Notes under the pieces: model-generated
What the model saw: only the letters and a program-made list of their open reading frames with translations
The model's database searches: none
Told to the model about the DNA's origin: nothing
Shown here: positions 41,771 to 61,699 of the stretch, piece by piece
Layout: every line of letters begins with the position of its first letter
Numbering within the stretch: position 1 is the first letter of the stretch
Source: a phage
Direction: 5' to 3' (one strand)
DNA length: 64,000 nucleotides
Sequence record: PZ583741.1
Program-made: the position numbers and the translations under genes

Positions 41771-42187
41771 ATGGCTAAAAAGCTATTCAGTAAAGAAAAT
41801 CAACCACAAAATAAACGTGGGAAAGACAAGCGTAAGTTGCTCGTTGAAGCTCTTGAGAGAAAGGGGTTTAGTGAGGAAAAGCTCTATGACGCCATCGTTG
41901 AGATGGCGATGATTGAGCGTGATACTGCAATGATGAAAGAGCTTATCGTTCGATTCAGTCCGTTACCTAAGCCTGTCGCCCCTGTTTTTGAAGTTGATTT
42001 CCCTGATGACGGAACTCCGGTAGAGAAGATTGATGCTGTTATTCGTGGCATAGCTGCTGGTGTTATACCTGTGGACATTGGAAAGACATTTGCGGAGGTT
42101 ATCAGGACTGGGCTTGATATTGCTGAAGTTACCGAACTCGCCGCGCGCCTTGAGCGACTGGAGAAATTACTGGCGCAGCAACAGTAA
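41771..42187 (+). CDS. putative terminase small subunit
   Basis: 138 aa, immediately upstream of large terminase; coiled-coil C-terminus. Confidence 0.45.
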   Translation: MAKKLFSKENQPQNKRGKDKRKLLVEALERKGFSEEKLYDAIVEMAMIERDTAMMKELIVRFSPLPKPVAPVFEVDFPDDGTPVEKIDAVIRGIAAGVIPVDIGKTFAEVIRTGLDIAEVTELAARLERLEKLLAQQQ

Positions 42188-42206
42188 CTGATTTATAATA
42201 ATTAAT

Positions 42207-42290
42207 GCGGCTAGGGGGCACCCGAAAAGCGACTCATCACCGCCTGCCGCATTCACTTCAATGATGCCCTGATGAGGAATCTATATATGG
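42207..42290 (+). promoter_or_regulatory. conserved 5' leader element, copy 2 (same hairpin/SD arrangement as 4280..4370)
   Basis: aligned by eye to copy 1. Confidence 0.5.
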
Positions 42291-44806
42291 CACGCAAAAG
42301 ACTGTCAGCACCAGCAATTGAAAAACTCGAAGAGATTATTGGCGATGGCGTGATTGATACGCCTGAATCCGCGGTGTTCGGTGTTGTTAATACAGATAAG
42401 CAGATTGTTCGCAAACTAAAAATGACGCAAAGCGGAGTTGATGACGTTAGCGACTCTGATATTAACGTTGATCACCTGATACCAGAAAAGCTGGAAAAGC
42501 TACTTTACCCCAAGCGAAATAAGATTGTGTTTGGCGGGCGCGGATGCTTAGCCATCGGCACAATGGTTAGGATGTTTGATGGTAGCCTAAAACGCGTAGA
42601 GGATATCGCTGTTGGCGATAAGGTTATGGGTCCAGACAGTAAACCACGAAATGTTTTAAGCATCTGCCGTGGGTTTGATGACATGTATACGGTTCATCAA
42701 AAATATGCTGAGGACTACACTGTCAACTCAAGTCACATACTGTCATTACGAAAGATTCCATCTGCTATCAGTGACGAGACAAAAACACCGGATGGTAAAA
42801 GAATTTATCGTTATTACCCAAATGACCCTGAAATACTTAATATCGGTGTTTCAGAATATTTGTCGCGCGCAACTTCCACGAAGTTCCGTCATGTCTTTAA
42901 AGGGTGGCGAACAGGATGGGATTTTCAGGAACAAAGCGTTCCAATTGACCCGTACTTTCTTGGTTTATGGTTAGGTGATGGCTCATCTCGTAGTGTTGAA
43001 GTATGCACGCCTGATCCAGAGATAGTTGACTACCTTCACGGTGTGGCAAGCCAATATGGGATGCAGGTAAAGGTTCGCGACGATGATAGATGCCCTGTCT
43101 ATGCGATAACTAATGGTCGAGCTGCTGGCATGGGGAAAAACACCAACCCTTTACTAACTAAAATGCAGCAGCTTGGGGTGATTAATAATAAACACATACC
43201 TGACTGCTATATTAAAAACAGCAGACAGGTAAGACTTCAGATTCTGGCTGGGCTATTGGATACTGATTCGCATTACCACAAAGAAAAGAAAAGCTATTGT
43301 TTTACATCAATAAATAAAGATATAGCCTTCTCTTTGATGGATGTGGCAAGATCACTTGGCTTCAAGTCAAGCATAATCAAAAAGACCGATGTCACCTTTG
43401 AGTATAAAGGTGAGAAAAGAATATACGAAAAGGATGTGTGGGAGGTGTTCGTTAGTGGTGAACTTCATACAATCCCATGCCGAGTAAAAAGGAAGATAGC
43501 AGAGAAAACCAAGTCAACCCGTGGAAAGATGACTGAGGTGTCATTGTCTTATGCCGGGCATGGTGTATACGCTGGATTCACTCTTGATGGCGATCATCTT
43601 TTCTTGCTTGCTGATGGCACAGTTACACACAACAGCGGAAAAACAAGAACAGTAACTACAATACTTACGGAGCGTGCACGCTTTAAGCCTGACAGGATAG
43701 CTTGTTTCCGTGAGATTCAGCAGTCTATTGAGGATAGTTCGTATCAGGAACTGAAAGACGAGATTGACAGGAAGGGCGAGACAAAAGAGTTTCGCGTAAT
43801 CAACAACGAAATAACACACAAGGTAACGAAAGCAAAGTTCCGCTTTAAAGGTCTGTATCGCAACCAGACGACCGTTAAAGGCTTTGCTGGCATTACAGTC
43901 GCTTGGGTTGAGGAGGCTGAAAACGTTAGCCAGACAAGCTGGGAAATCCTCACTCCAACTGTTCGCGCTGATGGCTCTGAGATATGGGTGACATTCAACC
44001 CAAATAAGGAGCATGACCCCACATGGAAGACGTGGGTTGAGCCGTTTTATAGCAAACTGCGCTCAAGTGGCGGTATTTACGAAGACGAAGAAAACCTGAT
44101 TATTGAATGTAACTATTCAGATAATCCGTGGTTTTGGGATACGCCACTACCCAGCCAAATGCAACGAATGAAAGAGACAGACTTCGACCGCTATCAATGG
44201 GTTTGGGGTGGTCGCTTTAACAAGAGGAATGACGAGCAGGTCTTTGGCGGCAAATGGCGCATTGATAACTTTGAGGTTAAACCTGAATGGCACGGCCCAT
44301 ACTTCGGGATGGACTTCGGGTTTTCCACTGATCCTACCGCAATGATTGAAGTTTACATCGAAGAACTACCAGGTGCACGGCGCAACATTTATATTAATCG
44401 CGAATATGGCAAGGTTGGCCTTGAGATTACCGATACACCAGCTGCGATGGAGCAATCATTCCCGATGGCTAAGCGCGCGCGATGGTATGCAGACTGCGCT
44501 CGACCGGAAACCATCAGCCACATCAAGCGTTCTGGCTTTGATATTCATCCATGCACAAAATGGCCGGGAAGCGTTGAGGATGGCGTAACGTGGCTGCGCG
44601 GCTGCGACAGTATCATCATCCATGAGCGATGCAAGGAAATGCAGAATGAAGCGGCAATGTACAGCTATAAGGTTGATAAGCTGACCGGAAATGTACTCAC
44701 GGATATTGTTGATGCATATAACCATTACTGGGATGCCGTTCGCTATGCGCTTAATGACCACATCGTCCAGCGCGGTAGCGGAATGCTAATCCGGCGCAGG
44801 AGATAA
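42287..44806 (+). CDS. terminase large subunit, intein-containing
   Basis: Walker A GRG|SGKT split by intein; C-terminal nuclease region. Confidence 0.9.
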   Translation: MARKRLSAPAIEKLEEIIGDGVIDTPESAVFGVVNTDKQIVRKLKMTQSGVDDVSDSDINVDHLIPEKLEKLLYPKRNKIVFGGRGCLAIGTMVRMFDGSLKRVEDIAVGDKVMGPDSKPRNVLSICRGFDDMYTVHQKYAEDYTVNSSHILSLRKIPSAISDETKTPDGKRIYRYYPNDPEILNIGVSEYLSRATSTKFRHVFKGWRTGWDFQEQSVPIDPYFLGLWLGDGSSRSVEVCTPDPEIVDYLHGVASQYGMQVKVRDDDRCPVYAITNGRAAGMGKNTNPLLTKMQQLGVINNKHIPDCYIKNSRQVRLQILAGLLDTDSHYHKEKKSYCFTSINKDIAFSLMDVARSLGFKSSIIKKTDVTFEYKGEKRIYEKDVWEVFVSGELHTIPCRVKRKIAEKTKSTRGKMTEVSLSYAGHGVYAGFTLDGDHLFLLADGTVTHNSGKTRTVTTILTERARFKPDRIACFREIQQSIEDSSYQELKDEIDRKGETKEFRVINNEITHKVTKAKFRFKGLYRNQTTVKGFAGITVAWVEEAENVSQTSWEILTPTVRADGSEIWVTFNPNKEHDPTWKTWVEPFYSKLRSSGGIYEDEENLIIECNYSDNPWFWDTPLPSQMQRMKETDFDRYQWVWGGRFNKRNDEQVFGGKWRIDNFEVKPEWHGPYFGMDFGFSTDPTAMIEVYIEELPGARRNIYINREYGKVGLEITDTPAAMEQSFPMAKRARWYADCARPETISHIKRSGFDIHPCTKWPGSVEDGVTWLRGCDSIIIHERCKEMQNEAAMYSYKVDKLTGNVLTDIVDAYNHYWDAVRYALNDHIVQRGSGMLIRRRR
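42545..43633 (+). mobile_element. intein (363 aa) with LAGLIDADG homing endonuclease domain inside terminase Walker A motif
   Basis: starts CLAIGT, ends VTHN followed by extein Ser; two LAGLIDADG motifs (LGLWLGDGSS, LAGLLDTDSH). Confidence 0.8.
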
Positions 44807-45346: not shown

Positions 45347-45508
45347 TGTGGTGATTATTGAAAAAACAAATGAATGCCACAGTCTGTATATAAATACAGA
45401 ACTAGTCATCAATTTAAGGCAATGTGACGACTGGGTTCAGCTTGACAAACACCAAGCCGCGCAACTAATCGAAGTCCTGCAACGCTGGGTTAATGGTGAG
45501 GAGATTGA

Positions 45509-45718
45509 ATGATGAGCGTTTATTTTTATTGCGGTCACATTGAGCGACAAGGAAGCGTAGCGAGCGTTGGTAGTTTCTGCGGATTATCAATTGGACCTGA
45601 TGCTGTTAGCGCATATGAAGATGTCATGAGAGCGCAGGTGAAGGAAATCCAGTCAATCACTGAGAGCGGCGCTTTTAATCTTTCTGTTATTTTTGATAAA
45701 TTCGAAAAGGTGGAGTGA
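45509..45718 (+). CDS. hypothetical protein
   Basis: 69-aa ORF. Confidence 0.45.
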   Translation: MMSVYFYCGHIERQGSVASVGSFCGLSIGPDAVSAYEDVMRAQVKEIQSITESGAFNLSVIFDKFEKVE

Positions 45719-46194
45719 TGATTGATTGGGTATCTTTATTTGATTATGATGGAGCGTCTTTGGTGTGGAAGCATGGAAGGGGAGGTGTTTCCGTTGGCAG
45801 CATTGCGGGAACGGTTAATGCTGGCGGGTACATTCAGCTCAAAGTTAACGGAAGATTTTATTATGCCCACAGAATTATATGGGAAATGCATAACGGTCCT
45901 ATACCGGAAGGTATGGAGATTGACCACATAAATCATAACAAGGCGGACAACAGGATTGAGAATTTGCGTCTTGTTCGACACAAAACTAACACTAAAAACG
46001 CGCCTAAATACAAAAATAACACCAGCGGCGTTACTGGTGTGAGTTGGTATAAGAGAGATAAAAAATGGCTAGCACAAATAATGGTTGATGGCAATTACAT
46101 ACGTCTTGGTCTTTTTGATAATTTCGAAGCAGCAGTCGACGTGAGAAAGGAAGCAGAACTAAGGTATGGATTTCACAAGAACCACGGCGCTTGA
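45718..46194 (+). CDS. HNH homing endonuclease with AP2 domain
   Basis: HRIIWEMHNGPIPEGMEIDHINH...DNRIENLRLV; C-terminal GFHKNHG. Confidence 0.85.
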   Translation: MIDWVSLFDYDGASLVWKHGRGGVSVGSIAGTVNAGGYIQLKVNGRFYYAHRIIWEMHNGPIPEGMEIDHINHNKADNRIENLRLVRHKTNTKNAPKYKNNTSGVTGVSWYKRDKKWLAQIMVDGNYIRLGLFDNFEAAVDVRKEAELRYGFHKNHGA

Positions 46195-46222
46195 TGATAT
46201 AATGACCCTTGCAGAAATGTGA

Positions 46223-47461
<1,239 letters not shown>

Positions 47462-47516
47462 GTTATCTTACAAGGCATCTCGTGGGGTGCCTCAGTAAGA
47501 CAACCGGAGATAGAGC

Positions 47517-47702
47517 ATGAAAACCAAAATGATTCACAAGTCAGAAGTAAAAATTGGCGACACGGTAATTCACTGCGGTGAGATGAAGACGGTTGGCATG
47601 GAAACATTTGGCAAGGATGAGTTTATGGGACTCCTACTGTGGGGTGATAGCTATCGCTGCGGCTACAAGATGGTTGAGGTTGTAACTGAGGTTAAGTTTT
47701 GA
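47517..47702 (+). CDS. hypothetical early protein
   Basis: 61 aa, GGAGA RBS. Confidence 0.5.
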   Translation: MKTKMIHKSEVKIGDTVIHCGEMKTVGMETFGKDEFMGLLLWGDSYRCGYKMVEVVTEVKF

Positions 47703-47746
47703 ATAGCACGAATTGCTAAACCTTCCGCAAGGCCGTTTGATATAGT
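47703..47746 (+). promoter_or_regulatory. B-module promoter cassette 1: ATAGCACGAATTGCTAAA - N20 - TATAGT
   Basis: palindrome TAGCA-N5-TGCTA; -10 hexamer 38 bp after motif start. Confidence 0.5.
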
Positions 47747-47966
47747 GGTCTTGTTGAAGCAAAACAATCAATCATGGGGTTACACAAATGCAAGTTTATA
47801 AATCACCTGGCGGCGCTCGTTACGTTGTTGTTGATGGCATGGTGTACTGCAAGCCGCTAACCGGATTCACATTTCGCTCGTCAATGACGGTGGATCGATA
47901 CCTTTAGTTGATAGGTTGGGGATTTCTTAGGTTTGAAAAGGTAATCAAGCCTATAATGACCGTCAA

Positions 47967-48010
47967 ATAGCACGAATTGTTAAAATGGGATTCATCCTGA
48001 ATGGTATGAT
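47967..48010 (+). promoter_or_regulatory. B-module promoter cassette 2 (variant TTGTTA; -10 TATGAT)
   Basis: same 38-bp spacing. Confidence 0.4.
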
Positions 48011-48162
48011 CCACACATCAACCACAAGAATGGAAGTTAAGTGACGATATACGAACATAAATTCAGCAGTATGGGTATTGATATGCTCCTGCACTATGTA
48101 GACGAAAAATACGCAAATCTCATGCTTAATACGCATGGCGGCACAATAACGAGGATTGAGAT

Positions 48163-48426
48163 ATGAGTAAGTACAACCGTGAGATTATCGGCCTGGATGG
48201 GGAAGTAACCACAGTGGATGTATATCGAGTCCTGGATGCATTCCAGGTAACAGACCAAGCTATACAGCACGCAATCAAGAAGATGCTGTGCACTGGACTT
48301 AGAGGGCATAAGGACTATCTTACTGACATTGAAGACTCCATTGAATCACTGCAAAAAGCCAAGGAACTTTACGATCAGCGCAAGAGTTACGAGCGGCGAT
48401 ACAATTTATCTTTTACAGATAAATAG
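48163..48426 (+). CDS. hypothetical early protein
   Basis: 87 aa, GAGGA RBS; stop TAG lies inside next motif. Confidence 0.5.
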   Translation: MSKYNREIIGLDGEVTTVDVYRVLDAFQVTDQAIQHAIKKMLCTGLRGHKDYLTDIEDSIESLQKAKELYDQRKSYERRYNLSFTDK

Positions 48427-48466
48427 CACGAATTGCTAAACCCGCTCAGAAGGGTTTTGTTATAGT
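48423..48466 (+). promoter_or_regulatory. B-module promoter cassette 3
   Basis: motif plus TGtTATAGT extended -10. Confidence 0.5.
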
Positions 48467-48495
48467 TAGTTCACACCAAACGAGAGGAAATAAAG

Positions 48496-48714
48496 ATGAT
48501 TACTATTAACCTGTCAGATAAACAAGCAGCAGAACTCAAGTCCATGCTTTCAATCTTTGAGAAGCCAAATGACCAGGTAATTGCCAAAGAGGTAGTGGCT
48601 CAGATTAACAACCAGCAATTCGACGTAAGTGACTTCGAGTCATCGCGCCAGTACGAGGCAATGAGTGTTAATGCTGCATACCTGACTAACTGGGATAATG
48701 CGACTAAGAAATGA
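48496..48714 (+). CDS. hypothetical early protein
   Basis: 72 aa, GAGAGGAAA RBS. Confidence 0.5.
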   Translation: MITINLSDKQAAELKSMLSIFEKPNDQVIAKEVVAQINNQQFDVSDFESSRQYEAMSVNAAYLTNWDNATKK

Positions 48715-48860
48715 TTTTATACATACATGAGTACTGGACGGGGAAGTTTAACACAGTTCGACATGTCCGTGTTTACGAAGATTATGTAAATGCATTCAAT
48801 CAGCAGAAGGTTCTTGGTGGCACCATCAAGGTTTGCGATGTTGTGGATGAGATTTACTAA
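48711..48860 (+). CDS. small hypothetical protein (49 aa)
   Basis: manual ORF, ATGA overlap. Confidence 0.35.
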   Translation: MILYIHEYWTGKFNTVRHVRVYEDYVNAFNQQKVLGGTIKVCDVVDEIY

Positions 48861-48904
48861 ATAGCACGAATTGCTAAAGCAGTCTTGGGGTAATTTGTTA
48901 TAGT
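48861..48904 (+). promoter_or_regulatory. B-module promoter cassette 4
   Basis: motif plus TGtTATAGT. Confidence 0.5.
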
Positions 48905-48934
48905 TACCACATCAAAACTAACGAGGTTATAAGA

Positions 48935-49039
48935 ATGAGTGAATTAATTAAAACTATCGCGGACTATCCATTTGCTTCGCTTTTTCTTGCTATTGCAATA
49001 TATGAAATTGTAAAGATTATTGTCAAATGTATTAAATAG
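48935..49039 (+). CDS. small membrane peptide (34 aa)
   Basis: manual ORF, GAGG RBS. Confidence 0.3.
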   Translation: MSELIKTIADYPFASLFLAIAIYEIVKIIVKCIK

Positions 49040-49079
49040 CACGAATTTCTAAAACATTATCGGGGTATCTTACTATAGT
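49036..49079 (+). promoter_or_regulatory. B-module promoter cassette 5 (variant TTTCTA)
   Basis: motif plus TATAGT at fixed spacing. Confidence 0.45.
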
Positions 49080-49109
49080 TACCCCATCAAAACGAAACAG
49101 GAAGCAGAA

Positions 49110-49289
49110 ATGAAATTTCAACAAGGCGAGCCAAAGCTACAAGTCAACCACTTCGATGGTTACGCAACATTCATCATAGCCCAGGCTTGCGGGATGCGAG
49201 ATGAACCTCACGTTCACACCATTCACTTAACAGAAGAACAGGCACGAGAACTGGCTTACGAAATTCTTGAGCAATTGAACCGAATTTAA
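49110..49289 (+). CDS. hypothetical protein (59 aa)
   Basis: GGAAG RBS. Confidence 0.4.
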   Translation: MKFQQGEPKLQVNHFDGYATFIIAQACGMRDEPHVHTIHLTEEQARELAYEILEQLNRI

Positions 49290-49338
49290 CGCGCATAAAA
49301 CGCATTCTAACGAACGATAATTTAAGTAAGGCGATTCT

Positions 49339-49497
49339 ATGATTAAGGTTGTTTTTATTGCTGATGATGGTGTTTATCCATTATTATCTAATGGTGATGT
49401 TATTTACGTGCAAGACATGGGTTGCGCATATATCTATACAGATGAGTTTGGTGACTCTTATTATATTGAGAAATGGGAAGTTGAGGAGATTGCATGA
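49339..49497 (+). CDS. small protein, paralog 1 (52 aa)
   Basis: MIKVVFIADDG...; similar to next ORF. Confidence 0.4.
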   Translation: MIKVVFIADDGVYPLLSNGDVIYVQDMGCAYIYTDEFGDSYYIEKWEVEEIA

Positions 49498-49655
49498 TTA
49501 AGCTTGTTTATGTGGGTGAGAGTGATTATGTGGCGCTCATTCAGAGTGGTGATGTGTTCTTCGCAGAGATGAGTGATGATGGTAGTTTCTACATCGTAAA
49601 GAACAAGAATGGCGAAGATATCTACCTTTCAAAAGATGAGGTCATCATTTACTAA
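49494..49655 (+). CDS. small protein, paralog 2 (53 aa)
   Basis: MIKLVYVGESD...; tandem duplicate. Confidence 0.4.
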   Translation: MIKLVYVGESDYVALIQSGDVFFAEMSDDGSFYIVKNKNGEDIYLSKDEVIIY

Positions 49656-49780
49656 TGGATAACTACGAATCACCAGTAGAGTGGTGTAAGCGAATGCAGG
49701 ACGAAGCTAAAACTGGTGAAGAGGCGATGGCTTACTACGAACTGGCGCAAATTTGGATGGAACGTGAGAAGAAAGAATGA
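49655..49780 (+). CDS. small hypothetical protein (41 aa)
   Basis: manual ORF with overlapping start/stop. Confidence 0.3.
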   Translation: MDNYESPVEWCKRMQDEAKTGEEAMAYYELAQIWMEREKKE

Positions 49781-49920
49781 GCTTCACTGAATACGTTATC
49801 GCATGCGAGAGACTGGTCTTTGACATGAAGACTTTTCACTGGTTCATCATCAAGGATTTAATTAAGCCTTACAAGCAAGGCGTTACGCCAGAGGCTTTTG
49901 TTAAGTCATTCTACAAATAG
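49777..49920 (+). CDS. small hypothetical protein (47 aa)
   Basis: manual ORF; stop TAG inside next motif. Confidence 0.35.
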   Translation: MSFTEYVIACERLVFDMKTFHWFIIKDLIKPYKQGVTPEAFVKSFYK

Positions 49921-49960
49921 CACGAATTGCTAAACGCAGTCGCCATGGATGGCATATAAT
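49917..49960 (+). promoter_or_regulatory. B-module promoter cassette 6 (-10 TATAAT)
   Basis: motif plus consensus -10 at fixed spacing. Confidence 0.5.
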
Positions 49961-49993
49961 TACCACATCAACACAACGAAGAGAGATATAATA

Positions 49994-50140
49994 ATGAAAA
50001 ATGTATTTGGCATCAGCTATGAAGAAGAGTTTGTTGATTGCCTTATTTACCTGAATGAGATCTACGGAGATGAGTTTGAATGTGATGGTGATTCACTTCA
50101 TGCAAAAATAGAACTTGAAACATTTGGGGAGGTTGTCTAA
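49994..50140 (+). CDS. hypothetical protein (48 aa)
   Basis: ATG at 49994 in ORF 49949..50140. Confidence 0.4.
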   Translation: MKNVFGISYEEEFVDCLIYLNEIYGDEFECDGDSLHAKIELETFGEVV

Positions 50141-50382
50141 TGATGTTTGGATTATCAGAAGCACACTTCAACGCAGTTAAACGCCAGGCAGCAAAGTTGA
50201 ACGAAGAGTACAGCAAGTTATCGCCAAAACAGCGCAAGGACGATAAGCAGGTTGCGGCATTGATTTCAAAGATGTGGGAGCCAGTTTTCACAATCATTAG
50301 TCGAGACCGCTTTGTTTGGACCAGTGGGTATCTTAAGGGTAGAGTAGGTCACGACGAGAATGGGAATAGTCTTTATGAGTAA
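50140..50382 (+). CDS. hypothetical protein
   Basis: 80 aa, GGGAGG RBS. Confidence 0.5.
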   Translation: MMFGLSEAHFNAVKRQAAKLNEEYSKLSPKQRKDDKQVAALISKMWEPVFTIISRDRFVWTSGYLKGRVGHDENGNSLYE

Positions 50383-50557
50383 TTGCAATAAGCATAGGTA
50401 TAAGTACGCTTTCAGTTCAAAACTTACAGCCCACGACATAAAACTACTTAATCTAGGTTACTTCAAATCCAGCAAAAATGAAAATCATGTCGGGGATTAT
50501 AGATCATTTTATGAGTGCGTTAATTGCGGCGAGATGATTGCGATGGGGGTATTATGA
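50360..50557 (+). CDS. hypothetical protein (zinc-finger-like)
   Basis: 65-aa ORF; start uncertain (50360 or 50375). Confidence 0.35.
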   Translation: MGIVFMSNCNKHRYKYAFSSKLTAHDIKLLNLGYFKSSKNENHVGDYRSFYECVNCGEMIAMGVL

Positions 50558-50640
50558 GTGAGTTAACAATCTGGTTTATCGCAGGTCTGATTACTTGGGC
50601 TTACTTTTTAATCGTTTAGATTGAGCTTGTTAAAAAGAGC

Positions 50641-50669
50641 TTGCATCACTGACAGGAATTATCTAATAT
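50641..50669 (+). promoter_or_regulatory. sigma70-like promoter (TTGCAT - 17 bp - TAATAT) upstream of tRNA
   Basis: hexamers and spacing read from sequence. Confidence 0.4.
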
Positions 50670-50838
50670 TAACCACGTAGACAAACGAGGCCACCAGGTG
50701 GCAACGGCGCACGGAGCGCACTACACGGCAAGTCCGTAGCTCATTAAGTAGCGTATGCGGCATTAAGACCTAGCGCAAATAGGCAGATTAATCGGCTGTA
50801 TCAGGCAGCCCCGGAGCCGTAACCGGGACTCATTCAAA

Positions 50839-50916
50839 GCTCTGCTAGCTCAATTGGACAGAAGCAACGACCTTCTAAGTCGCAGGTTACTGGTTCGAAT
50901 CCAGTGCGGAGCGCCA
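50839..50916 (+). tRNA. tRNA-Arg (anticodon UCU), CCA encoded
   Basis: 7-bp acceptor stem, GG in D-loop, anticodon loop CUUCUAA, T-loop TTCGAAT, 3' GCCA. Confidence 0.75.
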
Positions 50917-50931
50917 ATAAAGGAGTTCATT

Positions 50932-51114
50932 ATGTGGGATGTGAAGTTGTCAATTCGCTTAATGGGCCGCTCGTGCAAGAATTGCACTCAAGAATACATC
51001 GCGTCAGTTGCCGCAATCAGCGCTGAGGATGCGGTAGCGAAAGTAAAGGAGATGTCAGGCGCTGACCCTGACACCCACAAATTCCTGGTAGCTTACGTTC
51101 GTGAGCAAAAGTAA
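50932..51114 (+). CDS. hypothetical protein (60 aa)
   Basis: AAGGAG RBS; track ORF 50854 overlaps the tRNA so start moved. Confidence 0.45.
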   Translation: MWDVKLSIRLMGRSCKNCTQEYIASVAAISAEDAVAKVKEMSGADPDTHKFLVAYVREQK

Positions 51115-51154
51115 AAAGTGTTATACCCTCGTTAAGTTTCGTTTCTCTCGTTGT

Positions 51155-51184
51155 TTTTAGCCCTCGCTTGAGGGCTTTTTTTCG
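51155..51184 (+). terminator. rho-independent terminator
   Basis: hairpin agccctcgcttgagggct plus T6. Confidence 0.6.
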
Positions 51185-51225
51185 TCTGCAATATGCTATA
51201 ATCTGGAATCAACAAAGGAGGATTT

Positions 51226-51732
51226 ATGAGCAAAGCAGCATTAAAGATGGGTGAGGGAAATTTCAAGGCGCTCTACAACAAGAAGTATGGCGACATTGCT
51301 ATGGTGGCAATCAACCGCAAGTACACGCCTGAGGAAGTTTTCGATTTCGCCGTTAGATACTTCTCCTGGGCTGAGAGCGAGGCAATTAAGGCTATTGAGA
51401 CGGCTGCTTTCCAGGGTGTGGTTAGCGAGAGCCTCGTACACAAGCCTAGAGTATTCACCTTAACTGGGCTGGCGCTCTTTATGGGTGTCAATATCAATAG
51501 ATTCGCTCGCTGGCGTACTGAGGCTGGATACTCTGATGTGATGGAATTCATTGATAACGTTATTTACGAGCAGAAGTACCAGCTTGGTGTCGCAGGCATC
51601 ATCAACTCTACCATCGTTGGTAAAGAGCTAGGAATTGATAAGCCGCAGGAGATTAAGATTAGCAACAACTCCACAGCTAACGATGTTGACAGTATGAAGG
51701 AAGCACTTGAGTCCGTGATCAGTAAGCTATAG
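51226..51732 (+). CDS. terminase small subunit
   Basis: 168 aa, HTH-like TLTGLALFMGVNINRFARW; AAGGAGG RBS; upstream of large terminase. Confidence 0.6.
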   Translation: MSKAALKMGEGNFKALYNKKYGDIAMVAINRKYTPEEVFDFAVRYFSWAESEAIKAIETAAFQGVVSESLVHKPRVFTLTGLALFMGVNINRFARWRTEAGYSDVMEFIDNVIYEQKYQLGVAGIINSTIVGKELGIDKPQEIKISNNSTANDVDSMKEALESVISKL

Positions 51733-51800
51733 CACTTATTGTTAAAAGAATGGGCCCAATCAATGAGATAATTGGGTCACTAACTTAACGAGGTGATGAT

Positions 51801-52313
51801 ATGAATTGGCATGATTATTTTGAATACAAAGATGGGAAGATTTACTGGAAAGATTACGATAGCGAGAAGCTTGGAAGGAGAAGGATACAGCGAAGATTCA
51901 TAGGGAAAGAGGTTGGCGGCATTGATAAAAGCCTAGGGTATGTTAGGGTAAACATGCCTGGTAAAAAATATTGGGTTCATAGAATAATCTGGGAAATGCA
52001 TAACGGAGCAATACCAGAAGGTATGCAAATTGACCATATAAATCATGTTAGAAATGATAACAGGATAGAAAACATTAGGTTAGTTACAATTCAGGAAAAT
52101 AGAAAGAATCAGTCAATAAATTCTAGGAATAAGACCGGGGTTACCGGAGTCTGCATAGTATCTAGGACTGGCAAGTATGTAGCTCAAATAAAAAAGGATG
52201 GAGAGAATATTCACTTGGGATTCTTTGATAATATTCACGACGCATCGATTGTCAGGGCGAGGGCTGAATTTATTCTTGGGTATCATAAAAACCACGGGAG
52301 GAAAGATGAGTGA
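51801..52313 (+). CDS. HNH homing endonuclease with AP2 domain, between terminase subunits
   Basis: HRIIWEMHNGAIPEGMQIDHINH...DNRIENIRLV; C-terminal GYHKNHG. Confidence 0.85.
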   Translation: MNWHDYFEYKDGKIYWKDYDSEKLGRRRIQRRFIGKEVGGIDKSLGYVRVNMPGKKYWVHRIIWEMHNGAIPEGMQIDHINHVRNDNRIENIRLVTIQENRKNQSINSRNKTGVTGVCIVSRTGKYVAQIKKDGENIHLGFFDNIHDASIVRARAEFILGYHKNHGRKDE

Positions 52314-53877
52314 TTTGATAGTTTGGGATGAGTTAAATCATGCGCAGAAGATGGCTATCAAGGCCATCTCTGAGCATAGTTTCGAGGGGTTCTTGCGGTG
52401 TTTCTTCCAGATAACTCAGGGCGAGAGATTCAAAATGAATTGGCATGCGAAGTACCTTTGCCGCGTCATTGATGAGATTCTTGAGGGTAAGAGAAAGGAT
52501 ACCATCATAAACGTATCTCCGGGATCTGCCAAAACCGAACTGTTTAGCATCCACTTCCCTGTATATAGCATGATTAAGATTAAGAAGGTTAGGAATCTTA
52601 GTTTGTCGTTCTCTGACTCATTGGTTAAGCGCAACTCCAAGCGCGTAAGGGATTTGATAAAATCAAAGGAGTTCCAGGAGCTTTGGCCCTGCACCTTTGG
52701 AACGTGCAGGGATGACGAGATTCAGGTTCTTGATGAGAATGGCAAAGTTAGGTTTGAGTCTATATCTAAGGCGATGGCTGGTCAGGTGACAGGAAGCAGG
52801 GGCGGCTACATGACTGACGATTATAGTGGTTGCATAATGCTGGATGACCCACTAAAGCCTGATGACGCGTTAAGTAATGTAAGAAGAGAGGCTGTCAATA
52901 TGCTTCTCAAGAACACAATCCGTTCACGTCGAGCTAGCTCAGTAAAGGGAAAAGAAACGCCAATACTTTCCGTGCAGCAAAGACTTCATGTTCTGGACAC
53001 TAGCCACTTCATGGAGTCAGGGCAAATGGGCATAAAGTTCGACGTAGTGAAAGTTCCAGCCATAGTCACAGAGGATTACGCCGACACGCTTCCTGATTGG
53101 ATCAAACAACAATTTATTGATGATGTTCTTTCATCACCATTTGTAGAGCGGGATGGAGTTAAGTATTACAGCTACTTTCCGGCAAAGGAGTCAATAGAAG
53201 ACCTGATGGCTATGTGGGATGCTGACCCGTACACGTTCCTTAGTCAGTACCAGCAGGAACCTGTAGCTCTGGGCGGCAATCTTATTAATGTGGATTGGTT
53301 CCAGCGCCTTAGTGATACATTCATACCTCCAGCCAAGTATGATTATCGATTCATCACATGCGATACCGCGATGACCACTAAAAGTTACAGCGACTTCTCT
53401 GTTCTTCAGTTGTGGGGCTATAAAGATGCTAAGATTTACCTTATTGATCAGCGCAGGGGTAAATGGGAGGCCCCAGAGTTGGAGGCTGAACTTCTGGACT
53501 TTGAGAAGAAATCAAGGGCAACCAGTCAGTCAGATGGTATCCTCAGAAAGATTATTATCGAGAAGAAAGCGTCTGGTATCGGCCTGATTCAATCAGCTGG
53601 CAGGGTTATGCGAACACCGATAGAGCCATACGTACCGGATAATGACAAGCTAACCAGGGTGATGAGTGCACTACCACAGATTAAGGCTGGTAACGTAGTT
53701 CTTCCAGAGTCATCGCCGTGGCTAAACGGATTGCTCACTGAGGTTGCGGCTTTTACGGCAGATGACTCGCATAAGCACGACGACCAAATTGACTGTCTAA
53801 CAATGGCGGTAAACCTTGTACTTAACATCGCTGATGATCCTAAGGCGAGACTGATGCGCATAGCGGGAATGAAATAG
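52306..53877 (+). CDS. terminase large subunit
   Basis: Walker A-like VSPGSAKTE; C-terminal nuclease Asp residues; overlaps HNH stop by 8 nt. Confidence 0.8.
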   Translation: MSDLIVWDELNHAQKMAIKAISEHSFEGFLRCFFQITQGERFKMNWHAKYLCRVIDEILEGKRKDTIINVSPGSAKTELFSIHFPVYSMIKIKKVRNLSLSFSDSLVKRNSKRVRDLIKSKEFQELWPCTFGTCRDDEIQVLDENGKVRFESISKAMAGQVTGSRGGYMTDDYSGCIMLDDPLKPDDALSNVRREAVNMLLKNTIRSRRASSVKGKETPILSVQQRLHVLDTSHFMESGQMGIKFDVVKVPAIVTEDYADTLPDWIKQQFIDDVLSSPFVERDGVKYYSYFPAKESIEDLMAMWDADPYTFLSQYQQEPVALGGNLINVDWFQRLSDTFIPPAKYDYRFITCDTAMTTKSYSDFSVLQLWGYKDAKIYLIDQRRGKWEAPELEAELLDFEKKSRATSQSDGILRKIIIEKKASGIGLIQSAGRVMRTPIEPYVPDNDKLTRVMSALPQIKAGNVVLPESSPWLNGLLTEVAAFTADDSHKHDDQIDCLTMAVNLVLNIADDPKARLMRIAGMK

Positions 53878-53917
53878 CACAAATTGCTAAACACTAAAGC
53901 CACGGATGGCGTATAGT
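53874..53917 (+). promoter_or_regulatory. B-module promoter cassette 7 (variant ATAGCACAAATTGCTAAA)
   Basis: terminase stop TAG is inside motif; TATAGT at fixed spacing. Confidence 0.45.
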
Positions 53918-53946
53918 TACTTCACACAAAAGAGAGGAGAAGAAAG

Positions 53947-54279
53947 ATGAAGGCAGTATTTAAAGGTTATAAAAAAGCTGGTCGTTTGGAATTTACTATT
54001 GGTAAGATTTATGAGTTATCAGAAACACGCGGAGTGGGTGGATATATGGTGGTGACTGATGACGGTGGCTTTCGGGCAATATTTATCCCAGACAACATCT
54101 ATGATTTCGAGGTGTTGATCCCAGATGAATTTATCGGTAAAGAAAAGCAATTCAAATATTACATCAATGGCGAAGCTGTTTCTAAAGTCAAGTTCGATGA
54201 TACACTGTTATGCGTCAAGGAATTTAAATCTGATGGCATTGATACATCATCAATCAAGTTCGAAGTAAAATTCGAGTAA
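53947..54279 (+). CDS. hypothetical protein
   Basis: 110 aa, GAGAGGAG RBS, own promoter and terminator. Confidence 0.5.
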   Translation: MKAVFKGYKKAGRLEFTIGKIYELSETRGVGGYMVVTDDGGFRAIFIPDNIYDFEVLIPDEFIGKEKQFKYYINGEAVSKVKFDDTLLCVKEFKSDGIDTSSIKFEVKFE

Positions 54280-54298
54280 CCACAAAAGCTATGATAAA

Positions 54299-54325
54299 CT
54301 AGCCCCTAAATGGGGCTTTTTTATT
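54299..54325 (+). terminator. rho-independent terminator
   Basis: hairpin agcccctaaatggggct plus T6. Confidence 0.6.
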
Positions 54326-54335
54326 GGAGAAAAAC

Positions 54336-55562
54336 ATGGTCAAGACAGACAGCTACGCCAATATCTTTCTAGGCGGCAGTGATGGTAGTGAGATTTACGG
54401 GAGCTTGCAGAACCAAGCGCCTACAATTCTGGCTTCGCTTTATGCGGATAATGCACTGGTGCGTCGAATTATCGACACAATCCCGGAGACGGCATTAGCG
54501 GCAGGATTCCACATTGACGGCATTGATGACGAGCCTGCATTCTGGTCTCGCTGGGACTATCTGGAGTTGACAAGGCACATCAACGAAGCGTGGTCGTGGG
54601 CTAGATTGTTCGGTGGAGCGGCAATTGTCGCTATCGTTAAGGACAACAGAGCTCTAACAAGCCCAGTCAGAGAAGGTTCTGAGCTTGAAACTGTTCGCGT
54701 ATACGACCGCACACAAGTAAAAGTCCAAACTCGAGAGGAGAATCCGCGCAACGCACGTTTTGGTAATCCACTAACCTATCGCATCACCACTAATGAGAGC
54801 GATATGTTTTACGATGTGCATTACAGCCGCATTCATATCATCGACGGAGAGCGAATCCCTAACGTAATGCGTCGGCAAAATGATGGCTGGGGCCGCAGCG
54901 TTCTCTCCAGTGATATTCTTGACTCAATCAAGGATTACACCAACTGCGAACGACTAGCGACTCAACTGCTCAAGCGTAAACAGCAAGCGGTCTGGAAAGT
55001 CAAGGACCTGGCATTGCTTTGTGATGATAGTGAAGGAGTTGGCGCGGCTCGTTTACGTCTCGCTCAAGTTGATAACAACAGCGGAGTTGGTCAGGCAATT
55101 GGCATTGATGCGGAATCGGAAGAATACAGCATTCTGAACTCTGATATTGGTGGGATTGATGCGTTCCTGGATAAGAAGTTCGACAGAATCGTTGCTCTGA
55201 GCGGCATCCATGAAATAATCCTGAAGAACAAGAACGTCGGCGGCTTATCATCAAGCCAGAATACAGCGCTTGAGACATTCCATAAGCTAGTCGATCGAAA
55301 GCGTAACGCTGAACTGCTGCCGATTCTCGGGTTCCTGATTCCGTTCATTTCAGACGAGCAAGAATGGTCAGTGGAGTTTAATCCTCTGGCTCAGGAATCA
55401 AGTAAAGATAAAGCGGAGACCCTTGAGAAGAACGTAAACAGTATAGCAACACTAATTGCAGCTGGCGCTATGGATACTAGCGAAGCGCGTGATACACTAC
55501 GAACTATCGCGCCAGAGATTAAGATTGGCGATGGCAATATCGAACCTAAAGAACCAGTCTAG
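54336..55562 (+). CDS. putative portal protein
   Basis: 408 aa; between large terminase and scaffold. Confidence 0.5.
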   Translation: MVKTDSYANIFLGGSDGSEIYGSLQNQAPTILASLYADNALVRRIIDTIPETALAAGFHIDGIDDEPAFWSRWDYLELTRHINEAWSWARLFGGAAIVAIVKDNRALTSPVREGSELETVRVYDRTQVKVQTREENPRNARFGNPLTYRITTNESDMFYDVHYSRIHIIDGERIPNVMRRQNDGWGRSVLSSDILDSIKDYTNCERLATQLLKRKQQAVWKVKDLALLCDDSEGVGAARLRLAQVDNNSGVGQAIGIDAESEEYSILNSDIGGIDAFLDKKFDRIVALSGIHEIILKNKNVGGLSSSQNTALETFHKLVDRKRNAELLPILGFLIPFISDEQEWSVEFNPLAQESSKDKAETLEKNVNSIATLIAAGAMDTSEARDTLRTIAPEIKIGDGNIEPKEPV

Positions 55563-55631
55563 GAAGCAATGGCGACGACAGAGGAACCTAATGAATGATG
55601 AATTTGATGGCTTTTAGTGAGGAGAATTGGG

Positions 55632-56717
55632 ATGTCTAAAGCCCGCTATGACAGTGTAAAGTTTAAAGCAACAATCGACGAGAATGGATTCTTAGTTGAC
55701 ACTCCGGTAGTCGCTCGTCTCGGCGTGCAAGTCTACTACATGGAAGATGGTCGAACGGTTCGAGAGTTTCGCCCGGCAGAGGAGGTTTTCAATGATGAAT
55801 CTCTGGCAAGCTACCAGGGTAAGCCAATGACTCTTGATCATGTTTTCGTTAACTCAGAGAACGCTAAAGAGGTAGTAGTCGGCTCAGTTGCTGGAAAGGC
55901 AGAGCCATTAGGCAGCTCCGTGGTTGCTCCAATTGTTATTTACGATAATGCCGCCATTCAGGAAGCTATGTCAGGTAACGCAAAGGAGTTATCCGTTGGA
56001 TACTCATCAGTCATTGATTACACCCCAGGTTGGGGTGACCCTGTTACTGGTGAGTACTTCCTTAAGTCTGAAAGTGAGCTATTCGACGTACCAGAAGGAT
56101 GGCAGGAGTTCGACGCAATTCAGCGTGACATTAAAGTGAACCATCTCGCAATGGTATATCGCGGTCGCGCAGGTATTGCCAAATTGAATATGGACGGTGA
56201 GCAGGAAAACCCGTATACTACTGACGTTGATATCAATAAAGAGGATAAACAGGAAATGATTAAGATTAAACTAGACGGCGCGCAGGAATTCGAAGTCGCC
56301 CCAGAAATCGCTTCTCACATCGAAGCGCTGAACGCAAAGGCTGACACTGCAATCGCAGAGCGCGACTCGCTGAAAGCTAAGGTAGATGCAATTCCAGCTG
56401 AAATCGAGAAAGCAGTAGCTAAAGCTAAAGCTGATGCCGATGCCCTAGCCGCTCTGGTTGCTGTTGCTGCTGAAGCTGGTGTTAAGGCTGACGGCCTGGA
56501 TGCTAAAGGCATTAAAGTTGCTTACGTTAAAGAAGTCTCCAGTCTTGATGTTTCCGAGAAGTCTGACGCTTACATCGACGCAGCGTTCGACATTGCCAAA
56601 GAATCTGATAAAATGGCTGAAGTACGTAAAGCGACTACCGCTTCCGACAAATCTGACAGCGCCGAAGAGCCTAAGAAATTAGACCCGCGTGCTCGTTTAG
56701 CTAAAATTAAGAAATAA
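55632..56717 (+). CDS. putative scaffolding protein / prohead protease
   Basis: GAGGAG RBS; Ala/Lys/Glu-rich coiled-coil C-terminus. Confidence 0.55.
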   Translation: MSKARYDSVKFKATIDENGFLVDTPVVARLGVQVYYMEDGRTVREFRPAEEVFNDESLASYQGKPMTLDHVFVNSENAKEVVVGSVAGKAEPLGSSVVAPIVIYDNAAIQEAMSGNAKELSVGYSSVIDYTPGWGDPVTGEYFLKSESELFDVPEGWQEFDAIQRDIKVNHLAMVYRGRAGIAKLNMDGEQENPYTTDVDINKEDKQEMIKIKLDGAQEFEVAPEIASHIEALNAKADTAIAERDSLKAKVDAIPAEIEKAVAKAKADADALAALVAVAAEAGVKADGLDAKGIKVAYVKEVSSLDVSEKSDAYIDAAFDIAKESDKMAEVRKATTASDKSDSAEEPKKLDPRARLAKIKK

Positions 56718-56729
56718 GGAGTTATAAAC

Positions 56730-57239
56730 ATGGCAATTCGTTCCGTAGCACTGGCTGGTATGGTTTCTGATACCTCTCTGTATAACATCGACGGCGCTTG
56801 CGTAGTTGGCGGCAGCGATGCAATTCCGGTTGGTACTGTTGTTGGTGTAACAGCCGCTCAGCCTATAGATGGTCACAAAGTTGTTGGCCTTCCAGCTGTA
56901 ACTGGCACGGCAGTTAAACCTTATGGTGTTGTTGTTAAATCTCATTACGAGACTCCAGATGGCACAGCTCGCGTAAATGAAGCAGTTAACGTAATGACTC
57001 ATGGTCGCATCTGGGTTCGCACCACTTTAGCAGCCGCGCCAGTTTTTGGTAGCAAGGTTTTCGTAAACGCAAGTGGTGTAGTTGTTGCTGAAGCGGCTAC
57101 TACTACTTGGGAAACTGGTTTTACATTTGCTGGCGGTTACATCGCAAACACTGGCACAGACCCACAAAACCTGAGCGTTGATGGTGCCCTAGTTGAGGTT
57201 CAGCTTATCCAATCCACGGACTCAACCGTTGCAGCATAA
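56730..57239 (+). CDS. putative head decoration protein
   Basis: 169 aa between scaffold and major capsid genes. Confidence 0.45.
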   Translation: MAIRSVALAGMVSDTSLYNIDGACVVGGSDAIPVGTVVGVTAAQPIDGHKVVGLPAVTGTAVKPYGVVVKSHYETPDGTARVNEAVNVMTHGRIWVRTTLAAAPVFGSKVFVNASGVVVAEAATTTWETGFTFAGGYIANTGTDPQNLSVDGALVEVQLIQSTDSTVAA

Positions 57240-57253
57240 TAGTTAAGACTAAA

Positions 57254-57280
57254 CTAACCCGCTTCGGCGGGTTTTTTATT
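57254..57280 (+). terminator. rho-independent terminator (UUCG loop)
   Basis: aacccgcttcggcgggtt plus T6. Confidence 0.6.
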
Positions 57281-57362
57281 GCCTATCATCTCATCATTGC
57301 GTGGTCTAAAAACTCGTGTATAATGAACACGTAGACACCTAACTGAAAAGGAACAATAAAGA

Positions 57363-58304
57363 ATGGCCATTAAATTTGATGCAGAACAAGCAAAAATCAC
57401 CGCTCATCTCGAGCAAATGGGCGTAGACAAAGCTGATGCCGCTGGTATCTGGACCGTTAAGCAACTGACCGCCAATCTGGCACGTGCTTACGAAAAAGAA
57501 TATCCAGACAACTCCGTTGTTAATATCTTCCCTGTAACCAATGAAATCCCAGGTCATGCGAAATATTTCGAATATCCAGAATTTGACGGCGTTGGCATTG
57601 CTCAGATTATCGCTGATTACTCTGACGACTTGCCGCTGGTTGATGCGTTTATGACAGAGAAACAAGGTAAAGTGTTCCGCTTCGGTAACGCGTTCCTGAT
57701 CTCTACTGATGAAATCAAAGCTGGCGCTGCTACTGGTCAATCGCTGTCATCTCGTAAGCAGGCGTTGGCATTCGAAGCGCACGATAACCTGTTGGATAAA
57801 CTGGTATGGTCCGGCTCTACACCGCACGGCATTCCTAGCGTATTCGACCATCCGAACATCAACAACGTTGTTGCTGGTACGTGGAACTCCGCAGCTGCCG
57901 CCATGACTGATATTACCGCACTTATTGATGCAATCGAGACTTCGACTAATGGCACTCACACCGCAACTGATATTCTGCTGCCTGCTTCCGCTCGCCGCTT
58001 GATGCAAGAGCTGGTTCCTAACACCTCTATCAGTTACGCGCAGCTGTTCGCCACCAACAACTCGGGTATCAATCTGCGTTACCTTCAGTTCCTGGATAAC
58101 TACGATGGCGCAGGCGGCAAAGCTGCTCTGGCTTTTGAGAAGGATGCATTAAATATGTCTATCGAGATCCCGGAGGCCACTAACGTACTTCCTGGTCAAA
58201 TGAAGGATTTACATATCAAGTACCCCGTAACCTCTAAGGCTACAGGTTTGATTTTATATCGTCCTCTGACGATGGCGGTAATGAAAGGCATTACCTACGA
58301 GTAA
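57363..58304 (+). CDS. major capsid protein
   Basis: 313 aa; own promoter and strong terminator. Confidence 0.65.
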   Translation: MAIKFDAEQAKITAHLEQMGVDKADAAGIWTVKQLTANLARAYEKEYPDNSVVNIFPVTNEIPGHAKYFEYPEFDGVGIAQIIADYSDDLPLVDAFMTEKQGKVFRFGNAFLISTDEIKAGAATGQSLSSRKQALAFEAHDNLLDKLVWSGSTPHGIPSVFDHPNINNVVAGTWNSAAAAMTDITALIDAIETSTNGTHTATDILLPASARRLMQELVPNTSISYAQLFATNNSGINLRYLQFLDNYDGAGGKAALAFEKDALNMSIEIPEATNVLPGQMKDLHIKYPVTSKATGLILYRPLTMAVMKGITYE

Positions 58305-58307
58305 TAA

Positions 58308-58333
58308 ATGGCCCTCTTCGGAGGGCTTTTTTA
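58308..58333 (+). terminator. rho-independent terminator (UUCG loop)
   Basis: gccctcttcggagggc plus T6. Confidence 0.6.
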
Positions 58334-58396
58334 CGTCTGTACCAAATGGAATTGTTGGGTTATAATCACTCAATCAGATAAACAAAGGAGACAAAA

Positions 58397-58642
58397 ATGA
58401 TTCGTTTAGAACACACTGGCGCTTGCCTTATCGTTTACAGTGGCGAGAAATATCTACCTGGTGACACTTTCGAGGTTGATGTAATTTGCGACGGACTAAA
58501 GCGTTTAATCGCAGAGGGCAAACTCACCATTGATGGTGATGCCAAAGCAACCAAACAGATTGCGCAGGAAGTTGTTAGCAAGAAAAAGCGCAAGGAACCG
58601 AAAACCATCTCCGAAGCTGAGACTGGCAACGAGTACAAATAA
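58397..58642 (+). CDS. hypothetical structural protein
   Basis: 81 aa, AAGGAG RBS. Confidence 0.45.
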   Translation: MIRLEHTGACLIVYSGEKYLPGDTFEVDVICDGLKRLIAEGKLTIDGDAKATKQIAQEVVSKKKRKEPKTISEAETGNEYK

Positions 58643-58683
58643 CAAACAGGGGGCTTAGGCCTCCTTTATTGTATGGAGCTAAT

Positions 58684-60274: not shown

Positions 60275-60289
60275 CAAAAGGAAAAATAC

Positions 60290-60946: not shown

Positions 60947-60949
60947 AGC

Positions 60950-60977
60950 ATAAACCCTCTTCGGAGGGTTTTTTATT
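60950..60977 (+). terminator. rho-independent terminator (UUCG loop)
   Basis: aaccctcttcggagggtt plus T5. Confidence 0.6.
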
Positions 60978-61029
60978 GCTACCAACCTGCTATAATGCAA
61001 TCTCACAAACAATAAGAGGATTAACTAAG

Positions 61030-61688: not shown

Positions 61689-61699
61689 TGGAGGCTTAG

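Follow-up and report, generated by a model that had tools for sequence, protein, structure and literature searches.

A LAGLIDADG intein predicted to splice from the Walker A motif of the large terminase in enterobacterial siphoviruses

Phage terminase inteins have been known for two decades. In mycobacteriophages, where TerL1-a and TerL1-b are P-loop inteins of the large terminase, splicing was demonstrated for representatives of the TerL inteins, with TerL1-b being one of them, and intein-less alleles were cut by the endonucleases of TerL1-b and TerL1-c (Kelley et al. 2016, PMC5050341). Clustering of inteins in P-loops has been described for bacteria and archaea in a census that also contains inteins of PBSX-type (XtmB) prophage terminases (PMC4760082), and spread from P-loop to P-loop across non-homologous proteins was reported for Anaeramoeba cluster 1 (PMC10710043). 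Here we characterize an intein in the large terminase (TerL) gene on a 64,000-nucleotide (nt) stretch of phage DNA (sequence record PZ583741.1), subsequently called the window; all coordinates refer to it. The insert of 363 amino acids (aa) splits the Walker A motif (P-loop) of the terminase. We establish its anatomy, clean insertion and fold, show that its catalytic residues are conserved and that it is under purifying selection, and describe a recombination island with the intein at its centre. At a probability of roughly 0.9, we regard it as a genuine class-1 intein with a LAGLIDADG endonuclease, separating Gly4 from Ser5 in the Walker A motif of the sole TerL.

Insertion site and anatomy of the terminase intein

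The listed open reading frame (ORF) of the TerL gene spans 42272..44806 (+) and encodes 844 aa, its first ATG being located at 42272. A GAGG sequence at 42274-42277 lies 9 nt 5′ of the ATG at 42287, and MARKRL is the N-terminus in every annotated TerL relative. Translation most likely starts at ATG 42287 rather than at 42272, which results in a precursor of 839 aa and a spliced product of 476 aa. The exteins match Pfam Terminase_3 (PF04466, 2.7e-31) at residues 454-648 and Terminase_3C (PF17288, 8e-12) at residues 681-829, in the numbering of the 844-aa ORF, and TerL scores 134.9 bits against the NCBIfam equivalog TIGR01547 (cut-off 105.05). Judged by these domain matches, the host protein is a Terminase_3/PBSX-type large terminase with a Walker A ATPase and a C-terminal RNaseH-like nuclease. 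The features of the gene and of the insert are as follows, with the evidence in brackets:

42287..44806 (+), coding sequence of the TerL precursor, 839 aa plus stop (ORF list, Pfam, NCBIfam, GAGG sequence, starts of relatives)
42287..42544 (+), N-extein, 86 aa, ending in KIVFGGRG with the first half of Walker A (alignment with intein-free TerLs)
42545..43633 (+), predicted intein, 363 aa, with a double-motif LAGLIDADG homing endonuclease set into a class-1 Hint domain, PI-SceI-like (Pfam, phmmer, AlphaFold, Foldseek)
42545..42547 (+), Cys1 (tgc), block A nucleophile (sequence; invariant in 72 family members)
42725..42736 (+), block B, N61-S-S-H64, an NxxH variant of TxxH (alignment A2; H64 invariant, N61 at least 90%)
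42953..42982 (+), LAGLIDADG motif 1, YFLGLWLGDG, aa 137-146 (pairs with PI-SceI LGLWIGDG)
42977..42979 (+), Asp145, catalytic, in motif 1 (pairs with PI-SceI D218; invariant)
43190..43192 (+), Lys216 (pairs with the PI-SceI active-site Lys301; at least 90% conserved)
43244..43270 (+), LAGLIDADG motif 2, LAGLLDTDS, aa 234-242 (pairs with PI-SceI LAGLIDSDG)
43265..43267 (+), Asp241, catalytic, in motif 2 (pairs with PI-SceI D326; at least 90% conserved)
43568..43633 (+), blocks F and G, YAGFTLDGDHLFLLADGTVTHN, ending in His362-Asn363 (pairs with PI-SceI YYGITLSDDSDHQFLLANQVVVHN)
43628..43633 (+), His362-Asn363 (cac aac), block G (N363 invariant, H362 at least 90% conserved)
43634..43636 (+), +1 Ser (AGC), first C-extein residue and trans-esterification nucleophile, residue 5 of GGRGSGKT (sequence, alignment)
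43634..44806 (+), C-extein, 390 aa plus stop, with the remainder of the ATPase domain and the RNaseH-like nuclease (Pfam)

The TerL ORF reads ...PKRNKIVFGGRG-CLAIGTMVRMFDGS...LFLLADGTVTHN-SGKTRTVTT..., and direct reading of the DNA places the insert at 42545-43633 (+), 1089 nt or 363 codons, splitting the Walker A motif (G-x-x-x-x-G-K-T) after its fourth residue as GGRG/SGKT, where the slash marks the insertion point. An earlier note, made from the letters of this DNA and its ORFs, had proposed a 363-aa intein with two LAGLIDADG motifs inside the terminase Walker A at these positions, with the termini Cys1, His-Asn and +1 Ser. The coordinates are exact to the base, the termini are read directly from the DNA and both motifs are found; its spliced product of ~480 aa was close in size, the value computed from ATG 42287 being 476 aa. 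The comparison with intein-free homologues, which the note had suggested as a check, shows a clean insertion: alignment with the TerLs of Shigella phage DS8 and Klebsiella phage VLCpiS13c leaves a single gap of 363 columns at GGRG/SGKT or GGRG/SSKT, and the same gap is seen with the TerLs of swi2, SeSz-2, KP591P1 and HC6. The motif of the intein-free homologues is GGRGSGKT, GGRGSSKT or GGRGSAKT; with homologues that are without the insert, the 363 aa are not a conserved terminase domain. In the precursor, the Terminase_3 match (profile 12-201, 109.1 bits) begins only after the insert, and splicing in silico yields one continuous match (profile 3-201, 126.1 bits).

All three Pfam families found in the domain search, another check proposed earlier, are above their gathering scores: Hom_end_hint (PF05203; 5e-21, 76.1 bits, cut-off 32.1), Hom_end (PF05204; 1.7e-9, 38.2 bits, cut-off 21.1) and LAGLIDADG_3 (PF14528; 5e-7). 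The NCBIfam model intein_Cterm (TIGR01443) matches with 16.1 bits, just over its cut-off of 15.6. In an alignment of the intein with 71 homologues (A2), residues C1, H64, D145, D239 and N363 are invariant, and N61, K216, D241 and H362 are conserved in at least 90%. The block B of PI-SceI, which we take to be N-A-T-H, is likewise an NxxH variant. An AlphaFold2 model built on A2 reached a predicted local distance difference test (pLDDT) of 93.9 and a predicted template modelling score (pTM) of 0.91. Foldseek aligned the model with whole PI-SceI (E 2.4e-28, template modelling score 0.77) and further with the archaeal VMA inteins TliVMA and PhoVMA, PI-PfuI and Prp8 inteins; the nuclease domain matched I-DmoI (1e-5) and domain II of PI-SceI, and its secondary-structure order in the model corresponds to the alpha-beta-beta-alpha-beta-beta-alpha nuclease fold. 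Model and Foldseek matches support a Hint (horseshoe beta) fold of the splicing domain. By every sequence-level criterion the insert is a class-1 intein with a double-motif LAGLIDADG endonuclease.

The closest solved relative is PI-SceI, the yeast VMA1 intein (1VDE, 1LWS), which phmmer finds in the PDB at 1.3e-19 over residues 1-363, the first 56 of them being ~50% identical; the next matches are fungal Prp8 inteins. Both inteins have a double-motif LAGLIDADG nuclease interrupting the Hint domain, and they share the catalytic Asp/Asp/Lys and the C1...HN termini. In contrast to PI-SceI, the intein described here is smaller by 91 aa, has a reduced region for DNA recognition and uses Ser instead of Cys at +1, and the host proteins are unrelated. 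We had also considered a P-loop site shared with the VMA1 intein (as GAFG/CGKT) and rejected it: in the PDB, the V-ATPase subunit before splicing has an uninterrupted VMA1 Walker A (GAFGCGKT, residues 255-262), and the intein follows 22 residues further downstream (IIYVG283/C738GERGNE). Because the VMA1 Walker A is intact, the kinship with PI-SceI is one of the intein family and not of the insertion site.

With the P-loop inteins of mycobacteriophage TerLs the intein has in common its location in the Walker A of TerL, a nuclease of LAGLIDADG type and the logic of splicing before packaging. The terminases belong to Terminase_1/Terminase_6 in mycobacteriophages but to Terminase_3/PBSX here, and the hosts are Actinobacteria and Enterobacteria, respectively. 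The registers differ as well: TerL1-a is located between Lys and Thr, whereas our intein is found three residues upstream (G/SGKT), and the similarity is only ~25-28% over partial length. Outside the allele itself, the closest relatives from cultured phages are a helicase intein of Jerseyvirus (SETP3-like) Salmonella phages and an intein of Klebsiella phage RCIP0054, both 36-38% identical over the full length. They belong to the same PI-SceI-like family and are inserted in Walker A motifs in the after-Lys register (GMGGGK/T and ATGGGK/T); their host proteins are annotated as 'intein containing helicase precursor' in Jerseyvirus and as hypothetical in RCIP0054. The PHROGs database already holds intein-bearing terminase families that match the insert.

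Distribution of the allele, identity island and homing

The window consists of two phage genomes end to end with a boundary at ~47406/47407. The genome with the intein, phage A, comprises positions 1-47406 and carries a 131-base-pair direct terminal repeat (1-131 and 47277-47406, 99.2% identical); positions 47407-64000 belong to a siphovirus that is unrelated to phage A and shares 95.8% identity with Escherichia phage vB_Ec-G8. Phage A is ~90% identical over most of its length to E. coli and Salmonella siphoviruses, among them HC6, swi2 and VSt472. HC6 is the nearest relative genome-wide; its TerL is intein-free, only ~62% nt identical and preceded by a free-standing HNH endonuclease gene. The intein-bearing allele was found in only 11 of 50,697 phage-collection records, the carriers including Salmonella phages Segz_1, ST44, ST46 and ST65, Klebsiella virus KpV2811, 'Vibrio' phage pYD38-A and 'Aeromonas' phage pIS4-A. 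All 11 GenBank/RefSeq records label the gene only as terminase (large subunit) with 839 aa (relatives: 474-476 aa), and an intein is mentioned in none of the retrieved papers naming pYD38-A, pIS4-A, KpV2811 or Roufvirus. The TerL genes of pYD38-A, reported from a South China Sea Vibrio, and of pIS4-A, from an Aeromonas of a German lake, are 100% nt identical and both ~97% identical to KpV2811; for this reason, the recorded hosts of these two phages look doubtful.

Six intein-bearing alleles were compared by Nei-Gojobori estimates of the synonymous divergence (dS) and of the ratio of nonsynonymous to synonymous divergence (dN/dS), and identity was followed in a 100-nt sliding window. All six are full length and ungapped and show neither frameshifts nor stops. 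Over all pairs, dN/dS amounts to 0.10-0.27 for the intein, 0.10-0.40 for its endonuclease part and 0.01-0.06 for the C-extein. The sliding-window comparison reveals an island of high identity around the intein, which is bordered by the upstream ORF:

42187..~43686 (+), identity island, putative co-conversion tract, 95-99% nt identity among intein-bearing phages (sliding-window identity)
41771..42187 (+), ORF of 138 aa upstream of TerL, small terminase subunit by position, left border of the island (ORF list)

The island (~1.5 kb) spans the end of the upstream gene, a spacer of ~100 nt, the N-extein, the intein and ~50 nt of the C-extein. Its left edge is sharp and located at the stop codon of the upstream gene, in the region of which the identity to intein-bearing relatives falls to 45-80%; the decay on the right is gradual. 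When our sequence is compared with KpV2811 and pYD38-A, the N-extein is 97.7% nt identical (dS 0.05) and the intein 95-96% (dS 0.11-0.15), in contrast to a C-extein with 80% identity and a dS of 1.5-1.9. Within the island dS is 0.05-0.19 for the same pairs, a contrast to the C-extein of roughly ten-fold. Since the synonymous sites themselves are conserved, the island is not due to constraint at the protein level. N-exteins are 97.7-98.4% nt identical among all intein-bearing phages and ~60% identical to intein-free alleles, and when the N-extein was searched by blastn, the intein-type version came up only in intein-bearing records and in one broken record. Island and dS contrast together indicate a recent horizontal spread between diverged terminase genes with co-conversion of the flanks.

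Two further candidates were examined and set aside. Salmonella phage 64795_sal3 (KX017520.1) was considered as an intein-free allele with the same N-extein and is not scorable because the record ends and restarts within TerL (at the window-equivalent positions 42384 and 44330); this 'complete genome' is without ~1.9 kb of window-equivalent TerL sequence that would hold the intein, and is truncated or mis-assembled. Base composition was rejected as a sign of foreign origin: the intein has a GC content of 42.5% (genome 45.9%), which corresponds to the 11th percentile of equal-sized windows and is no outlier.

The behaviour of the family and the island suggest that the intein spreads by homing. 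The freed intein or the precursor would act as a site-specific endonuclease with D145, D241 and K216 in the active site. In mixed infections it would cut intein-less terminase alleles near the GGRG/SGKT codons, and repair off the intein-bearing allele would copy the intein together with flanking extein DNA. From the sequence we consider it probable, by about two to one, that the endonuclease is still active.

Several observations weigh against the reading as a splicing and homing intein. The NCBIfam model for the N-terminal part of inteins (TIGR01445) does not match the insert. Motif 2 ends in Ser242 and not in the Gly that >90% of the family members have there, which might attenuate the nuclease. 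A sharp left edge of the island would also be expected from ordinary modular recombination. A recently emptied target allele was not found among the sampled intein-free alleles: only 44-51 of 72 nt around the site are identical in them, those of the relatives have TCN and not AGC for the +1 Ser, and a search of IMG/VR for an AGY-type empty junction with the degenerate pattern GGNGGNCGNGGNAGYGGNAARACNAGRACNGT gave 0 matches.

The change from Gly to Ser at the last position of motif 2, the failure to find a susceptible empty allele and a left boundary that falls exactly where the upstream gene ends would all fit an intein that splices but carries an inactive or decaying endonuclease. Its inheritance would then be vertical, or it would have moved by ordinary recombination of terminase modules, with the island as generic mosaic exchange at the junction of the small and the large terminase gene. 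The same 100-nt junction occurs in phages that have an HNH gene instead, which suggests a general recombination hot spot; because this junction is common to HNH-bearing phages, generic recombination is a live alternative for the left boundary. However, D145, D241 and K216 are intact, and the endonuclease part is under purifying selection at the dN/dS values given above, whereas a dead nuclease should drift or shrink to a mini-intein. Furthermore, the intein lies at the centre of the island, whose identity tapers off on the right as in co-conversion tracts. We rate an inactive endonuclease as rather unlikely, at about one chance in four by our own judgement, and favour an intein that retains a working homing endonuclease.

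Splicing and DNA packaging

Translation would yield an 839-aa precursor in which the ATP-binding loop is interrupted. After an N-S acyl shift at Cys1, the +1 Ser would attack the thioester in a trans-esterification, cyclisation of Asn363, aided by His362, would free the 363-aa intein, and an O-N shift would link Gly86 to the Ser. This would rebuild GGRGSGKT and produce an active terminase of 476 aa, with IVFGGRGSGKTR contained in the junction peptide of the ligated exteins. These steps (N-S acyl shift, trans-esterification, Asn cyclisation and O-N shift) follow established intein chemistry. A P-loop cannot work with 363 aa inserted between residues 4 and 5 of GxxxxGK[ST].

We infer splicing from the intact residues, the sole TerL copy and the viable isolates that bear the allele, and a functional splicing intein is, on this evidence, very probable. 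Neither a second TerL nor a second copy of the intein was found across phage A, and phages with the same allele are plaque-forming isolates. Since the Walker A motif is essential in terminase ATPases and TerL is present as a single copy, DNA packaging would very probably require splicing.

At the catalytic P-loop position the precursor is necessarily inactive, and the intein could in principle serve as a post-translational switch that delays or gates activation of the terminase, for instance in response to redox state, metal ions or DNA, and thereby times packaging instead of being a neutral parasite. Conditional splicing has been shown for other P-loop inteins, namely those of RadA and DnaB (discussed in PMC5050341 and PMC4760082), and the extra cysteines C41, C155, C184, C222, C253 and C313 could in principle form regulatory disulfides. 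Nevertheless, close relatives live with an intein-free TerL, so that the intein is dispensable for this type of phage, and the mycobacteriophage TerL inteins that were tested spliced fast and constitutively (PMC5050341). We regard such a switch as improbable. That the 363 aa form a non-splicing domain kept in the mature terminase is still far less probable, as all splicing residues are conserved, homologous terminases are entirely without the insert and at least 17 unrelated families of NTPases carry the intein family at the same position, which would be tolerable only for a self-removing element. Splicing of a class-1 intein is the reading we retain.

Walker A relatives and endonucleases beside the terminase

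A word-indexed search of 5.8 billion proteins returned two fragments of the same allele (92-96% identical) and then nothing above 46%. An exhaustive HMMER scan of 1.84 billion cluster representatives (clusters at 50% identity) yielded 3,493 relatives at E ≤1e-30, of which the best is 49% identical. No donor lineage was identified in these two protein searches: beyond its own allele (92-97%), the next relatives are at most 49% identical. When the residues flanking the inteins were extracted for the 120 nearest relatives, 100 proved to be inserted at Walker A sites, 77 of them directly behind the Lys of the motif (GK/[ST], with deviant xK counted in) and 23 in the register seen here (G/[STC]GK), mostly in PhoH. 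Among the cluster representatives, at least 136 of 152 full-length copies are located in Walker A, 130 after Lys and at least 6 at G/[STC]GK. The extein hosts span at least 17 Pfam families, including DnaB, Terminase_3, PhoH, thymidine kinase, ABC transporters, RecA, RuvB, dTMP kinase and AAA_24.

The intein of the window thus lies outside the 'classic' P-loop site after Lys, three residues upstream and directly after Gly4; other Terminase_3 genes carry family members after Lys (GGRGSGK/S). In a neighbour-joining tree it groups with these after-Lys Terminase_3 inteins, with a bootstrap of only 35%; a true sister relationship would mean that the register shifted inside a single gene family. A distant Terminase_3 protein of 1113 aa (P0233) harbours a family member in the same register (TGGRG/C...HN/SGKS, 39% identical) and, near its C-terminus, a second, unrelated intein. 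From these sequence comparisons, the intein belongs to a very large PI-SceI-like family which resides almost entirely in the Walker A motifs of many NTPase families, and represents its minority register. The P-loop spread and clustering published so far concern class 3 inteins in a eukaryote (PMC10710043) or census data (PMC4760082), where a PI-SceI-like clade with two registers is not specifically described. Tentatively, and with the odds rather against it, one may suppose that this clade targets Walker A as such, hopping between the P-loops of unrelated NTPases and shifting its register by three codons where Ser, Thr or Cys is available.

Some homologues stand alone. Five of them (P0087, P0111, P0020, P0116 and P0118), of ~360-400 aa, are without exteins or Cys1, several also without the terminal Asn, and an AP2 domain is present in two. 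Possibly these proteins are intein descendants that have become free-standing endonucleases, like yeast HO.

Endonuclease genes of other types are also found near the terminase. The ~100 nt 5′ of TerL (42187-42289) are 98-100% identical in Bas81, IME207, Sf11, SEzh_1 and EcoIv28_Lewi. In Bas81 the junction is followed by an HNH endonuclease gene, which lies between the upstream gene and an intein-free TerL; the layout of HC6 is the same, and in the records of IME207 and Sf11 the junction match coincides with an annotated HNH or homing endonuclease. Different selfish endonucleases seem to have a hot spot at the junction between the terminase genes. The upstream 138-aa ORF gave no match in a Pfam search, and its label as small terminase is based on position alone for that reason. 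On the other side, between TerL and the portal gene, a free-standing ORF at 45715-46194 (+) combines HNH_3 (Pfam 4e-23) with an AP2 match of 1.6e-5 (25.5 bits, under the gathering score of 33.3); the stretch 45387-46286 has no counterpart in Segz_1, ST65, KpV2811 and pYD38-A. By its domains, this ORF is a second insertion of homing-endonuclease type beside the terminase. As for the second phage of the window, its relatives CEB_EC3a and BEK1-1 are annotated 'terminase large subunit (x2)', which hints at a split or interrupted terminase there.

Terminase P-loop inteins are already documented (PMC5050341, PMC4760082), and the current understanding is not overturned by our results. Specific to this locus are an allele in enterobacterial siphoviruses that has not been annotated as an intein, a Terminase_3 host and the minority register G/SGK, and also its place in a very large PI-SceI-like family centred on Walker A, and an unusually clear signature of co-conversion across phage genera. 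In practical terms, the intein should be removed first in terminase phylogenies and in packaging-type predictions for Salmonella, Klebsiella and E. coli phages that are candidates for therapy. Easily grown phages and their intein-free sisters are convenient for measuring homing, co-conversion and the cost or timing of packaging. The Walker A preference in two registers adds to the known targeting of P-loops by inteins. If the clade indeed targets Walker A as such, its endonucleases must tolerate very degenerate targets or use another route of ectopic insertion; the terminase copy, which crosses phage genera together with its whole N-extein, would be a live example of P-loop hopping, and enterobacterial phages would offer a tractable system for watching non-allelic invasion by inteins. 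The ~ten-fold contrast in dS between the cassette and the rest of TerL is an unusually clear record of recent spread between genera.

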